The notes under the pieces were generated by a model. That model saw only the letters and a program-made list of their open reading frames with translations. It was not told the origin of the DNA and made no database searches. From an uncultured Clostridia bacterium (GTDB lineage Bacteria; Bacillota; Clostridia; TANB77; CAG-508), in contig CALXVB010000003.1 in the NCBI GenBank assembly GCA_944391855.1, positions 1-64,000 of the forward strand: a stretch of DNA of 64,000 bases. The letters are read 5' to 3'. This document shows positions 38,905-42,649 of the stretch, in pieces (within the stretch, counting starts at the first letter, position 1; the number at the start of each line of letters is the position of its first letter). The position numbers and the translations under genes were made by a program.

Positions 38905-39504
38905 TCTGTATTCTTCCTTTCTTTTAATATTTATTTTCTTATTTTATCCACTTCTAAAATAATATACATAAAATTTTATCACAAATTTTCAAAAAAGTAT
39001 AGACAAAATTTAAAAAATGTTGTATTATTGGTAGAAATTGGAAGGCGGTGTTTGAATTTACTATTCTAGATTTATTTTTCATATTTTTTATTATCCATCT
39101 TTTTATCAGTCTTTATTCAATTTATTTATTTTTCAATAATAAATTATTTCATAATTTACAAGGCGCAAAATTAAATTTAAAATCTAAACATTTTTCTAAT
39201 AAAAACTAAAAGAGGTGAATACTTTATTAGACGTTTACTATTTATTCTTATTTTTTCTTTTTTCTACTGCTATTTAGGCTATAAACTTTTTTCTGATATT
39301 ATTTATTCTAATTCAGTAATAATCCCCTATGGAATACACCCATTTGATATTTGTATTAAAAATCCTGATTTATGGAAATATATTAAAATTACTTTTGTTT
39401 TTACCTATATCTTTTCTTCCTTTATCATTTCTAATTCTTTTTATTTAATCCTGTCTTCTTTAAGTAAAAGAATAAAAGATAAAATTAGTAATTTTCCTGT
39501 AAAA

Positions 39505-41085
39505 ATGAAACCAAAGTATATTTTTTATCCCATATTATATCTTGTAAAAAAAATTAAAAATTTTATTCTTAAGAAAAAACTAATTTCCAATAGTAAGTAT
39601 AAGTTTTTTAATAGTGAAAATGAAATATCAAATAATAAATTGTACAAAATGCAAAATAATAATTCAGAAAAATTAGAAAAGCCTTTAACCCTTTTTGTGG
39701 GAAATTTATATGCCTCAGGCTCACCTATTTTTCTCTCTTCTTCTAGTTTATATCAAAATATTTTAGTTACCGGAACTATTGGTACAGGTAAAACTAGTAG
39801 TGCTATGTACCCTTTTACTAAACAACTTATTGAATATTCTTCCCATAATCCATTACAGAAAATAGGTATGCTAGTTTTAGACGTTAAAGGAAATTATTAT
39901 TTAAAAGTAACTGAATTTGCTAAAGCATGTGGCAGAGAAAATGATTTAATAGTAATTAGCTTAAATGGAAAATATAAGTATAATCCTTTACATAAGCCTA
40001 ATTTAAAACCTAATGTTCTAGCAAATAGATTAAAAACCATTTTACTTTTATTCTCTAAAAATAATTCAGAAAGTTATTGGCTAGATAAAGTAGAACAAAT
40101 TTTAACAGAATGTATTAAGCTTTGTAGATTATATAATGATGGATATGTCACTTTTGAAGAAATTCATAAACTTATTTCTATTGAAAATTATTATGTCCAA
40201 AAAATTGAATATTTAAGAAAAAGATTTTTGAATAACGATTTTACTAAAGAAGATACATATAATTTACTTTCTGCTTTAAATTTTTTTCAAAAAGAATTTT
40301 TATCTTTGGATCAACGAACTTTATCTATTTTAAAATCCGAAATTACCAGAATTACAAATGTTTTTGTTTCCGATTATGACGTATATAGAACTTTTAACCC
40401 TAAAAAAGAAGAACTTAATTTTTTAGGATTTGAAGATTTAATAAATTCTGGGAAAATTGTAGTTCTTAATATGAATATTTCTGAATATCAAGTTTTATCT
40501 AAAATTATTGCTACATATTTAAAACTAGATTTTCAAACCGAAGTAATGGCCAGACTTGCAAACGGTTTTATTTCTTCTTCTCGAACGGTTGCTTTCATTT
40601 CTGATGAATATCATGAATATTGTACTAGTTCTGATAGTGAATTTTATGCTCAAAGCAGAGAAGCCAAATGTATAAATATTGTAGCCACTCAAAGTTATAC
40701 TTCTCTTTTAAATTCATTAAATGATAAATATGCCGTTGACGTAATTGTACAAAATTTAGTTAATAAATTTTGGTTTAGAACTGATGATATATTTACTATT
40801 GAATGTTCTCAAAAACAAATTGGGAAAGAGGATAAAGAAAAATTATTTAAAAGTATTTCAGAAAATGCAAGAGAAACTAATTATAGTTATCTTACAAATA
40901 GTTTAAATTCTATTGATTCAAATATTTCTGAAAGTATTAGCACACAAATTAGCTATGATTTTGTTTACGATACTAGGTTCTTCACACAAGATCTTGAAAA
41001 TTTCTGTGCCCTTGCTTTCCTTTCTGATGGATACAAAATTATGAAACCACAAAAACTTAAATTAAAACCTTATTTCAAAAAATAA
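39505..41085 (+). CDS. Type IV secretion coupling protein-like ATPase (VirD4/TraG family); the frame is open upstream to 39181 and encodes two TM-like helices
   Basis: 526 aa from the first in-frame ATG. Walker A is LVTGTIGTGKTS. A T4CP-type motif is MLVLDVKGNYY...LIVISLNG.YKYNPLH. Walker B is VAFISDEYHEY. An ATQS motif is present. The same frame is stop-free from 39181 and encodes RRLLFILIFSFFYCYLGY and ITFVFTYIFSSFIISNSFYLIL. Confidence 0.6.
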   Translation: MKPKYIFYPILYLVKKIKNFILKKKLISNSKYKFFNSENEISNNKLYKMQNNNSEKLEKPLTLFVGNLYASGSPIFLSSSSLYQNILVTGTIGTGKTSSAMYPFTKQLIEYSSHNPLQKIGMLVLDVKGNYYLKVTEFAKACGRENDLIVISLNGKYKYNPLHKPNLKPNVLANRLKTILLLFSKNNSESYWLDKVEQILTECIKLCRLYNDGYVTFEEIHKLISIENYYVQKIEYLRKRFLNNDFTKEDTYNLLSALNFFQKEFLSLDQRTLSILKSEITRITNVFVSDYDVYRTFNPKKEELNFLGFEDLINSGKIVVLNMNISEYQVLSKIIATYLKLDFQTEVMARLANGFISSSRTVAFISDEYHEYCTSSDSEFYAQSREAKCINIVATQSYTSLLNSLNDKYAVDVIVQNLVNKFWFRTDDIFTIECSQKQIGKEDKEKLFKSISENARETNYSYLTNSLNSIDSNISESISTQISYDFVYDTRFFTQDLENFCALAFLSDGYKIMKPQKLKLKPYFKK

Positions 41086-41102
41086 TTACAAGGAGGTTTT
41101 CT

Positions 41103-41450
41103 ATGAAAAAATCTAAAAATAAATTTATTTTATTCTATTTTATGTTTCTATTATTCATATTTTTAATGTTATTCAATAATATATGTAAATCTGCTCTTTT
41201 TGATAGCCCTCCCGCGTTAGTAGATAAATTGACTAATGCATTTGAAAGCATTAAAAGTTGGCTTATTACTCTTGCTACTCCTGCTGCTGCAGTTGCTGTA
41301 GGTGTTGGAGTTTTTATGAAAAAGTTTAGTTTTGGCGATGAAGAAAGAATTAGAGTTGCCAAAAAGTTAATTAGAGGTTCTTTATTTTCTTATGCTTTTA
41401 TTCTTGCAATTAATTTAATTTTATCTGCAATTAAATCTTTAATAGAATAA
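41103..41450 (+). CDS. TrbC/VirB2-like pilin-type protein
   Basis: 115 aa. Signal-peptide-like N-terminus, then a hydrophobic helix (ITLATPAAAVAVGVGVF), a short charged loop, and a second helix. This is the VirB2 topology. Confidence 0.45.
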   Translation: MKKSKNKFILFYFMFLLFIFLMLFNNICKSALFDSPPALVDKLTNAFESIKSWLITLATPAAAVAVGVGVFMKKFSFGDEERIRVAKKLIRGSLFSYAFILAINLILSAIKSLIE

Positions 41451-41465
41451 TTATGGAGGTGTACT

Positions 41466-42362
41466 TTGGAAGAAAGTGTTTCAAGTGCTGAACTTACTAA
41501 TATTTCGCAAGTTATTATAGATACTATAAATAATTTATTAAATTCCCTATTTTCTTCTATTGATAATAGTGTTTATGATACTCTAGATGAATTAACTTTT
41601 ATAGGTACAGATATTTTAAATGATTCTTTATTTTCTAAAATATTTGGACATGGTTCAAATAACGGTTTACTAATAATTGCAAATTCTCTGCTTGTTGCAG
41701 TTTGTTTATACTATTGTTTTAAATTAATTTATTCACATTTTACGGGTATTTCTATTGAGAAACCATATCAGTTTGTTTTTAAATTATTAATATTTGCAAT
41801 GTTTATTAATTGTTCTTATTTTATATGTGAATTTTTTATATATTTTACTGATTTAATTTCTTCGTTAATTCGTCAAATTGGTGCTTCTATTTTAAATACA
41901 GAAATTTCTTTTTCTGCATTAGTAGAAAACTTAAATTCAGTTATTACAATTGATTCTACTAATATTAATGTGTTTTCTTTTGATGGAATTTTAAGAAGTA
42001 TTATATCTTTTAGTTTTGTAAGTTTATTATTTACCTATTCTTTAAGATATATAATGATAAAAGTTCTAATATTATTAATGCCTTTTGCTTTTCTCACACT
42101 AATAAACGCTTCAAGCGCATGGTTTTTCAAGGCTTGGCTTAAAATCTTTTTATCTCTTCTTTTTATTCAGCCATTTATTTCACTTATTCTTTTAATATCT
42201 TCTTCCTTAGATTTTTCTTCTTCTGATATTATCTCTAAATTACTATGTATTGGTTCATTATATGCTCTGATAAGAGCTAATTCATATACTCAACATTTTA
42301 TAGGTGGAATTTCCACAGATGTTTCACAAAGTTTTAAATTAATGAAAGGACAAGTTAAATAA
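41466..42362 (+). CDS. Polytopic membrane protein, VirB6/TrbL-like
   Basis: 298 aa with 5-6 TM helices. TTG start with a ribosome-binding site GGAGGTG. Lies in the operon between the pilin-like and PrgI-like genes. Confidence 0.4.
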   Translation: MEESVSSAELTNISQVIIDTINNLLNSLFSSIDNSVYDTLDELTFIGTDILNDSLFSKIFGHGSNNGLLIIANSLLVAVCLYYCFKLIYSHFTGISIEKPYQFVFKLLIFAMFINCSYFICEFFIYFTDLISSLIRQIGASILNTEISFSALVENLNSVITIDSTNINVFSFDGILRSIISFSFVSLLFTYSLRYIMIKVLILLMPFAFLTLINASSAWFFKAWLKIFLSLLFIQPFISLILLISSSLDFSSSDIISKLLCIGSLYALIRANSYTQHFIGGISTDVSQSFKLMKGQVK

Positions 42363-42364
42363 TT

Positions 42365-42649
42365 ATGAAATTTATTTTTCCACAAAATTATAATTTTGAT
42401 AGTAAATTACTCGGTTTTATTGACTATACTACTGTTATTTTAAATATTTTATGGGGATTATTTATATTTTTAATATCTTATTTTATTATTCCAAATATTA
42501 CTTTTAAAATAAGTTTTTTCATTGTTTTCTTTTTTCCTTTTTTCTTGTTTAGTATTATCGGATTTAATCATGAAAAAATGTTATATATTATTAAATATTT
42601 ATTTAAATACATTTTTTCTCCTAAAATATATTTATATAAAAAATATTAA
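42365..42649 (+). CDS. PrgI/VirB3-like small membrane protein
   Basis: 94 aa with two TM helices. The N-terminal FPQNYNFDSKLLGF and C-terminal KYLFKYIFSPKIYLY resemble the PrgI family. Translationally coupled to the upstream gene. Confidence 0.45.
   Translation: MKFIFPQNYNFDSKLLGFIDYTTVILNILWGLFIFLISYFIIPNITFKISFFIVFFFPFFLFSIIGFNHEKMLYIIKYLFKYIFSPKIYLYKKY

Follow-up and report, generated by a model that had tools for sequence, protein, structure and literature searches.

We analysed a window of 64,000 nt (25% GC) from an uncultured gut Clostridia bacterium of the TANB77; CAG-508 lineage (contig CALXVB010000003.1), in which two gene clusters near the replication origin probably encode one type IV secretion system (T4SS). 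An earlier account made from the letters of the DNA (the sequence-only reading) had described four co-oriented, tightly spaced genes for a VirD4-like ATPase, a pilin, a VirB6-like protein and a PrgI-like protein. Four plus-strand open reading frames (ORFs) do lie there, at 39505-41085, 41103-41450, 41466-42362 and 42365-42649, with gaps of 17, 15 and 2 nt. The set is larger than these four genes. A small ORF, p53, had been overlooked, as had a second cluster on the minus strand (47716-52399), 5-10 kb from the first. This cluster sits between gyrB and gyrA and holds genes for a TrsD-like protein, VirB4, a TadZ-like ATPase and p239. The features of the two clusters are as follows.

39048..39209, plus strand: p53, small conserved membrane ORF of 53 aa with one transmembrane (TM) helix and the C-terminal motif FHNLQGSKLNLK
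39211..39217, plus strand: Shine-Dalgarno sequence AGAGGTG of the coupling protein gene, 8 nt before ATT 39226
39226..41085, plus strand: VirD4-type coupling protein (T4CP), ~619 aa, with an N-terminal membrane region and a P-loop ATPase
41103..41450, plus strand: VirB2-like T4SS pilin precursor, 115 aa, with signal peptide, two hydrophobic helices and a charged loop KKFSFGDEERIR
41466..42362, plus strand: VirB6-like polytopic membrane protein, 298 aa
42365..42649, plus strand: p94, PrgI/VirB3-like two-TM protein, 94 aa
47716..48435, minus strand: p239, conserved soluble protein, probably all-helical, 239 aa, last gene of the VirB4 cluster
48460..49782, minus strand: p440, TadZ/CpaE-like ATPase of the ParA/MinD family, 440 aa, with an N-terminal extension of ~180 aa (Pfam CbiA, 35.1 bits)
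49801..51654, minus strand: p617, VirB4 ATPase with the middle and C-terminal ATPase domains, 617 aa
51797..52399, minus strand: p200, TrsD-like ORF, 200 aa as listed, a separate N-terminal domain of VirB4

Family scans of the window were performed on ORFs of at least 110 aa across the 64 kb. A scan with one genome per GTDB species gave 244 genomes with a T4CP relative, and the best 80 of these 244 were compared. We also searched VirB4 against 1.84 billion representatives and then looked up the gene context of the nearest outside relatives. The nearest relative with a fused VirB4 and a readable gene context was L085, a metagenomic contig (Logan SRR29457793).

As judged by profile and sequence comparison, the four family assignments of the sequence-only reading have solid support for the T4CP and the pilin, and moderate, not decisive, support for the VirB6-like and PrgI-like proteins. 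The T4CP matched Pfam TrwB_AAD_bind with 26.5 bits (cut-off 20.5) and TraG-D_C with 19.4 bits (cut-off 22). The motifs quoted for it earlier are present (MLVLDVKGNYY and IVATQS), together with the Walker A sequence GTIGTGKTSS. Both this protein and the VirB4 ATPase have intact Walker A and B motifs. The T4CP is 43.6% identical to the T4CP of L085 over 452 aa (E 1e-110), and the NCBIfam scan gave no match to the CD1115 family model. Plasmids yielded only 21 relatives of this atypical T4CP, all at 30% identity or less. These are orphan ATPases described as "TraM recognition / T4SS DNA-binding domain" proteins (Xanthomonas, Agarilytica, Aquicella and others). Eighteen of them lie on plasmids typed as non-mobilisable, mostly small, and one adjoins an integrase. 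This may be a distinct T4CP-like subfamily.

The window copy of the pilin matched PF18895 (T4SS_pilin) at 21.9 bits, below the cut-off of 26.6. The same family was found in all of its orthologues (65/65, best E 2.7e-6), and TrbC/VirB2 (PF04956) was found in 17. The pilin is 38.6% identical to the PF18895 pilin of L085 (E 1.5e-10). By predicted topology, the pilin has a signal peptide with an A-x-A site and two helices, p94 has two TM helices and p53 has one.

No Pfam hit was obtained for the window copy of the VirB6-like protein. Among its orthologues TrbL/VirB6 was the sole recurrent family (13/64, below cut-off, best E 1.8e-4). A model of this protein, built by AlphaFold2 (AF2) with database homologues, reached a pLDDT of 67 and a pTM of 0.62. 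When the model was compared with the PDB by Foldseek, the seven best matches were TrwI/VirB6 chains of R388 (best E 8e-3, TM-score 0.25-0.41). The protein is also 20% identical to a 316-aa ORF of L085 (E 3e-6). For p94, PF12666 (PrgI) was the top recurrent family (6/64 orthologues, below cut-off). In hhalign, its profile matched the N-terminus of a PrgI-VirB4 fusion with a probability of 73% and E 3e-5, including a G-x-N-x-E motif. By BLAST, p94 matched ORFs just upstream of VirB4 in L085 (33%, E 2e-8) and in a further relative, L087 (E 1e-11).

The small ORF p53 belongs to no Pfam family. It lies directly upstream of the T4CP gene. A motif search over 81 sources, made up of the 80 loci and the window, recovered it in at least 58, most of them with the conserved peptide. 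An 88-aa TM ORF precedes the T4CP gene of L085. The correspondence between the two is positional only, and p53 may be its counterpart.

The sequence-only reading had placed the beginning of the T4CP gene at 39181, which is merely the first codon after an in-frame stop. The earliest ATG, GTG or TTG of this gene is at 39505, where gene callers start. The in-frame stretch 39226-39504, however, encodes the conserved N-terminal membrane region of homologues of 591-640 aa. The sequence points to a non-canonical start, and the T4CP likely begins at ATT 39226, 8 nt after AGAGGTG. Among 61 orthologues aligned as far as the N-terminus, 27 lack any ATG, GTG or TTG in frame, and about a dozen further orthologues have a sole candidate start without a Shine-Dalgarno sequence of its own, in many of them the GTG inside GGAGGTG. 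The codon located 5-9 nt past GGAGGTG is ATT (27), ATA (11) or ATC (2). Such a non-canonical start would explain why gene callers report T4CP homologues of anywhere from 464 to 640 aa.

The p200 gene resembles the T4CP gene in this respect. Its listed TTG lies upstream of its own Shine-Dalgarno sequence AAGGAGG, and ATA and ATT codons follow that sequence by 5 and 8 nt (52376-52399, minus strand). The start of p200 is probably ATA 52381 or ATT 52378. In L083, a locus from a genus whose VirB6-like protein is only 56% identical, the p200-like and p617-like ORFs (about 19500-20850) both appear to start at ATT. The pilin gene has an ordinary start (AAGGAGG, 6 nt, ATG). The non-canonical starts may keep the ATPases at low levels.

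In the minus-strand cluster, p617 is the VirB4 ATPase. It passed the Pfam cut-offs of P-loop_TraG, with 78.4 bits, and of AAA_10, with 49.5 bits. In NCBIfam it scored 284.8 bits against conju_CD1110 (cut-off 325) and 244 bits against VirB4_plasma. Its match to the VirB4 structure 4ag5 in the PDB had an E of 8e-42, and it is 44.7% and 52% identical to the VirB4 proteins of L085 and L087, respectively. The p200 protein matched VirB4 models in their N-terminal region only, at positions 2-161 of conju_CD1110 (E 9e-8) and 87-260 of VirB4_plasma. Its identity is 31% to the fused VirB4 of L085 (residues 16-204) and 32% to a separate TraC-like ORF of L087. The p200/p617 split, with stop-rich spacers, is also found in L043 and L083, and a split occurs in L087 as well. 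Because L043 and L083 share it, the split is a conserved trait and no fresh lesion. A separate TrsD-like ORF beside virB4 is a known functional layout (PMC12102498).

The p440 gene is very AT-rich, and its product is a low-complexity, fast-evolving protein rich in K, N and I. It matched a 441-aa protein of L087 over its full length (24%, E 2e-17). The latter protein carries CbiA and a weak receiver domain, is encoded directly after VirB4 and heads a CpaF-TadB/C-Flp-RcpC operon, and for this reason p440 is called TadZ/CpaE-like. The last gene product of the cluster, p239, was syntenic in 41 loci at 30-90% identity. Profile searches of p239 in Pfam, NCBIfam, PADLOC and PDB gave no match, and its single-sequence AF2 model (pLDDT 45.7) was too low in confidence to use. 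We rejected a defence system as an explanation, as PADLOC gave generic HerA/VirB4-like similarity only.

Six of the nine window proteins are homologous to the conjugative element L085. There, MobC and a PF03432 relaxase are encoded divergently from a run that begins with a PrgI-like ORF, an 849-aa fused VirB4 and a PF18895 pilin. The same run continues with the 88-aa TM ORF, a 617-aa T4CP, an M23 peptidase and the 316-aa polytopic ORF, followed by ParA/ParB-like genes and then a Tad-type cluster. In L087 the order is PrgI-like, TrsD-like, VirB4 and the 441-aa TadZ-like protein at the head of the Tad operon. The window shares with L085 homologues of the PrgI-like protein, VirB4, the PF18895 pilin, the T4CP and the VirB6-like protein, as well as a small TM ORF before the T4CP. 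L085 differs in that a single locus also holds MobC, the PF03432 relaxase, the M23 peptidase, the ParA/ParB-like genes and a neighbouring Tad-type cluster. VirB4 is one protein of 849 aa there, whereas the VirB4 of the window is split and the gene order is rearranged.

The missing genes were sought in the window and also in a set of 84 lineage loci, together 1.35 Mb, which cover ~10 kb on either side of the T4CP gene in related genomes. Neither held a homologue of the relaxase, MobC, M23 peptidase or ParA/ParB of L085, or of the CpaF and TadB of L087. The C39 peptidase of L086 had no homologue in the lineage loci. The sequence-only reading had seen no relaxase, VirB8/TcpC-like protein or wall hydrolase nearby. 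Its view was borne out among the scanned window ORFs, where the relaxase, lytic transglycosylase, CHAP, NlpC, M23, VirB8/TcpC, integrase, VirB7, VirB9 and VirB10 families were all absent. The T2SSE and T2SSF families were also absent from the window.

In both L087 (174-8891) and L085 (20481-22550), the VirB4 module stands immediately ahead of a Tad (type IVc) operon, which suggests a recurrent partnership of T4SS and Tad pilus. TANB77 is reported to conserve a Tad (type IVc) pilus cluster, in a paper that makes no mention of a T4SS (PMC11680825). Protein 929 of that cluster and p440 belong to the same TadZ/CpaE-like ParA class. The TANB77 Tad cluster is nevertheless another locus and another machine (CpaB, CpaF, TadB/C and Flp-type pilins), and none of these genes is in the window. 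The window itself has only p440 of a Tad system, and no CpaF/TadA, TadB/C or Flp pilin. We considered whether the "conserved pilin" of TANB77 (PMC11680825) is the window pilin, and rejected this since it concerns a different locus.

The genes around the two clusters place them on the chromosome as follows.

38395-38581: tRNA-Glu and tRNA-Lys
42787-43755, plus strand: DnaD-domain gene (dnaD), DnaB_2, 98 bits
43776-44771, plus strand: DnaC-like helicase loader (dnaC/dnaI), NCBIfam PRK06835, 341 bits
45086-47524: gyrA, recognised from its translation
52820-54733: gyrB, recognised from its translation
beyond gyrB, up to 59583: recF, dnaN and dnaA, with ORF size and order as expected
60009-63692: rnpA, yidC, jag and mnmE

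The names dnaA, dnaN, recF, gyrB and gyrA were assigned by the size, order and sequence of the ORFs, without a family scan. Because dnaA, dnaN, recF and gyrB together span 52.8-59.6 kb and rnpA, yidC, jag and mnmE follow at 60-63.7 kb, oriC is near 59.7 kb. The PrgI-like gene ends 137 nt before the DnaD-domain gene at 42787. This distance agrees with the sequence-only reading, which had also noted the tRNA genes and replication-initiation loci nearby.

The plus-strand cassette is conserved across the lineage. A minus-strand DUF1858 gene followed by the genes for the T4CP, pilin, VirB6-like and PrgI-like proteins was invariant in the 80 loci except for three, in which the last two genes are swapped. 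Where the contig permits, the cassette is usually followed by dnaD, dnaC, gyrA, p239, p440 and VirB4. The tested components were intact and syntenic across the 80 species-level genomes, down to ~60% T4CP identity, and the genus of L083 has the same layout including the split VirB4. One of the loci belongs to Clostridium sp. CAG:273, which GTDB places in Bacillota_A; Clostridia; TANB77; CAG-508 (PMC13508870).

We then compared the divergence of these proteins with that of GyrA and DnaD. Spearman rho was 0.75-0.83 for the T4CP, the VirB6-like protein, p94 and p239, and 0.68-0.75 for VirB4. Ratios of nonsynonymous to synonymous substitution (dN/dS) were computed against five relatives for seven proteins, with p53 and p200 left out. 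VirB4 had the lowest values, 0.04-0.075, and is constrained like DnaD. The values were 0.09-0.18 for the T4CP, 0.10-0.19 for the VirB6-like protein, 0.08-0.13 for the PrgI-like protein, 0.12-0.22 for p239 and 0.06-0.32 for the pilin. Values similar to those of the cassette were obtained for the housekeeping genes beside it. The only relaxed member was p440, at 0.30-0.44. Conserved synteny, divergence that tracks GyrA and DnaD, and low dN/dS together argue from sequence that the cassette is a vertically inherited core machine under selection, neither the edge of an integrative and conjugative element (ICE) nor a remnant. The sequence-only reading had proposed a chromosomal module instead of a complete conjugative element, and the synteny and purifying selection in 80 genomes, with no relaxase within reach, bear this out. 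It had also considered that the block might be simply the edge of a complete ICE with a relaxase immediately outside, and no such relaxase was found among the scanned window ORFs or in the 84 lineage loci.

The claim that the operon is "fused onto" dnaD/dnaI was not upheld. The comparison of synteny around this pair, suggested with the claim, showed that the order of the cassette is kept in the 80 loci and that its adjacency to dnaD/dnaC is frequent, not obligatory. In L066 and L074, housekeeping genes are inserted between p94 and dnaD; by inspection these encode an HtrA-like protease, a FAD/Rieske-type oxidoreductase and glycosyltransferases. Four loci (L026, L036, L045 and L048) have a multi-kb gap at the same place, and the dnaD-dnaC pair has the opposite orientation in L012 and L079. 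As the adjacency can be broken, the "fusion" is positional only. We asked whether the inserts between p94 and dnaD are lost T4SS or relaxase genes and rejected this, because they hold AT-rich non-coding DNA or housekeeping genes, the latter recognised by inspecting the ORFs and their counterparts in the window.

Several known systems were compared with the window. The T4SS of Patescibacteria is chromosomal and derived from MPF-FATA, with TrsD, VirB4, PrgI, VirB6 and VirB2-like pilins (PF18895, PF04956). Its T4CP is usually apart from virB4, it mostly has no relaxase, and dnaA/dnaN/rnpA/rpmH are often its neighbours (PMC12102498). The window resembles it in the separate TrsD-like ORF by virB4, the VirB2-like pilin, the putative PrgI/VirB3-like and VirB6-like components, the T4CP apart from virB4 and the lack of a relaxase nearby. 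Both systems are chromosomal and vertical, with VirB4 ~7-10 kb from dnaA in the window, and both host lineages are uncultured with reduced genomes. This likeness is one of parts and layout. The window differs in that its host is a bona fide member of Bacillota and that it has one pilin gene where Patescibacteria have arrays of divergent pilins. Its two clusters flank dnaD-dnaC-gyrA, the TadZ-like protein and p239 accompany VirB4, and no peptidase or lysozyme adjoins virB4.

Elements of the CTn2/CD1110-CD1115 type, represented by pMM35_02 of Vescimonas fastidiosa, supply the best NCBIfam VirB4 model (conju_CD1110) and show 35% identity. In pMM35_02 the PrgI module is at the N-terminus of VirB4 and a small pilin-like ORF heads the cluster. 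In the window, PrgI, the N-domain and the ATPase are three proteins, the VirB4 score stays below the cut-off (284.8 against 325 bits), and there is no C39/NlpC-type hydrolase and no DUF5697/DUF6100 gene. By hhalign, the pilin matched the "fimbrial protein" of the Vescimonas cluster weakly, and the VirB6-like profile did not match its 309-aa ORF. The Trs system of the staphylococcal plasmid pGO1 has TrsD separate from the VirB4 ATPase TrsE, as in the window, a likeness taken from its description (PMC12102498). Unlike the window, pGO1 is conjugative and carries a relaxase. VirB6 homologues are missing from its subclass, and none of the Gram-positive T4SS classes is described as having VirB2 pilins (PMC12102498). 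A review of December 2025 likewise states that VirB2 is absent from Gram-positive T4SSs except those of Patescibacteria. Within the monoderms, it also confines the non-conjugative, growth-linked type of chromosomal T4SS to Patescibacteria (PMC12857230).

On balance, we consider it somewhat probable that the window holds the full inner-membrane and pilus set of a monoderm (MPF-FATA-like) T4SS, domesticated in the core chromosome of TANB77/CAG-508. This T4SS would be split into two clusters near oriC, with the p53, T4CP, pilin, VirB6-like and PrgI-like genes on the plus strand and the TrsD-like, VirB4, TadZ-like and p239 genes on the minus strand. The simplest reading of the sequences, and the one we favour, is a domesticated pilin-bearing, MPF-FATA-like conjugative element whose DNA-processing and wall-lysis genes were lost. 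A self-transmissible ICE or plasmid fits poorly, as no relaxase or accessory protein, hydrolase, VirB8 family, integrase or att repeats were found nearby, and the distribution is not patchy.

In the machine as we propose it, a VirB4 hexamer, made of p617 and its detached N-domain p200, would be anchored to the membrane by the VirB3-like p94 and would act on the VirB6-like platform. VirB4 would pull the signal-peptide-processed pilin from the membrane and polymerise it into a conjugative-type pilus or a conduit through the wall. The coupling ATPase, with p53 as a small membrane partner, would pick a cytoplasmic substrate and feed it to the channel. The TadZ-like ATPase might position the machine or link it to the Tad pilus of TANB77. 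The role would be contact-dependent exchange of macromolecules with other cells, not self-transfer of a mobile element, as has been proposed for the T4SS of Patescibacteria.

Several points weigh against this proposal. The calls of the VirB6-like and PrgI-like proteins consist of sub-threshold hidden Markov model hits, a model of moderate confidence and BLAST matches to unannotated ORFs. If the ATT start were not used, the T4CP would lose its membrane anchor. The fast-evolving TadZ-like gene (dN/dS 0.3-0.44) may be decaying. No VirB8-like protein or wall hydrolase, both considered necessary for passage through a Gram-positive wall, was found by sequence family or homology in the regions covered; their function may be encoded elsewhere, or p239 may serve as a substitute. 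The search for a relaxase and oriT covered only the window and ~10 kb on each side in related genomes. The function and the substrate of this T4SS are wholly inferred.

A rival reading is conjugation, in which a distant relaxase and oriT, on the chromosome or on a resident mobilisable element, would use the T4CP and the channel to move DNA between TANB77 cells. ParA-like ATPases (VirC1, gonococcal ParA) assist the recruitment of DNA substrates in some T4SSs. A VirD4-type T4CP has been kept under purifying selection, the nearest relative that we found is itself a bona fide conjugative element, and T4CP genes often sit with the relaxase, away from virB4 (PMC12102498). Still, the 64-kb window has no relaxase, MobC or oriT-like feature, and none lies in the ~10 kb to either side of the cassette in the 84 loci. 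The strictly vertical pattern and fixed chromosomal position are unlike those of a self-transmissible element. We regard conjugation as unlikely. The idea that the clusters are a functionless leftover of an old integrated conjugative element, now in decay, is highly improbable and already largely refuted. It could point to the missing relaxase, MobC and hydrolase of the ancestral type, to genes scattered over two clusters with a split VirB4, to a T4CP without a canonical start in the window, and to the AT-rich TadZ-like gene with raised dN/dS. Yet all components tested have stayed whole and in synteny in the 80 species-level genomes compared, dN/dS is 0.04-0.2 with VirB4 constrained like DnaD, and the supposed lesions are conserved: both the VirB4 split and the ATT/ATA start recur, and a TrsD plus VirB4 split is known to be functional (PMC12102498).

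A system for DNA uptake (ComB-like) or release could instead supply a small-genome organism with nucleic acids or templates. The window's VirB2-like, VirB3-like, VirB4 and VirB6-like set is reminiscent of the inner part of Helicobacter ComB, and the genomes of this lineage are reduced to ~1.3-1.7 Mb. Some T4SS loci of Patescibacteria accompany comF, recG and radA (PMC12102498). No competence or recombination gene, however, adjoins either cluster of the window. ComB-type importers lack a VirD4 coupling protein, whereas the window keeps one, and the VirB7, VirB9 and VirB10 families are missing from its scanned ORFs. In Southlakia, moreover, the essentiality of the T4SS is independent of ComEC-mediated transformation (PMC12857230). 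Uptake or release therefore seems very unlikely to us.

If the domesticated T4SS is real, the same parts list and the origin-proximal, relaxase-less layout are a core trait of a true Clostridia order, although such a layout has been described in the literature (PMC12102498, PMC12857230) only for host-dependent Patescibacteria. L085, a conjugative relative that has kept its relaxase, and the window would together form a before-and-after pair in which the domestication of such a machine could be studied. In Southlakia epibionticum ML1, the T4SS is essential for epibiotic growth (PMC12857230). By analogy, TANB77 might use its T4SS and Tad pilus as Patescibacteria do, as a growth-critical conduit to a partner cell, a suggestion that we consider quite unlikely. 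If true, it would mean partner-dependent bacteria inside Bacillota and could explain their resistance to cultivation. On this reading, TANB77 might also be an extant relation of the monoderm from which Patescibacteria received their T4SS. TANB77 is uncultured, has a reduced genome, is prevalent in the human gut and has been associated with the response to immunotherapy (PMC11680825). Its ecology, its cultivation and its interplay with host immunity could all be influenced by a conserved surface pilus or conduit.

Other features of the region were noted. The gyrB and gyrA genes, usually adjacent, are separated here by a 5.3-kb insert (47525-52820) that bears the VirB4 cluster and has stretches down to 14-18% GC. 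The T4CP cassette and dnaD/dnaC (39048-44771) are on the plus strand, head-on to the fork from oriC, and most flanking genes are on the minus strand. GC skew is ~0 at 39-45 kb and about -0.2 to -0.3 on both sides. A small ORF of 80-93 aa lies between dnaC and gyrA (44832-45074, minus strand, in the window; 13264-13545 in L083). It was found by tblastn in 7 of the 80 loci, is called as a gene at the same site in L083 and has no family.

Promoter and terminator scans gave matches no more numerous than in shuffled sequence, in this DNA of 25% GC. No Gram-positive LexA box was found near the cassette, although lexA is a neighbour, and no att-like direct repeats were found around the tRNA genes.

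Farther away, at 10696-19994, the window carries a lone AMP-binding enzyme (568 aa, minus strand) and then a 2481-aa two-module nonribosomal peptide synthetase (plus strand). The synthetase has two condensation, two adenylation and two carrier domains and the terminal reductase NAD_binding_4, and is a sizeable secondary-metabolite gene for a genome of ~1.5 Mb. At 496-4260 there are a Phage_rep_org_N replication-organiser gene, a helix-turn-helix regulator and two overlapping ORFs, Schlafen AlbA_2 (2808-3443) and HATPase_c_4 (3388-4260). The two overlapping ORFs look like one frameshifted or two-frame gene, and the region may be a prophage or island remnant.

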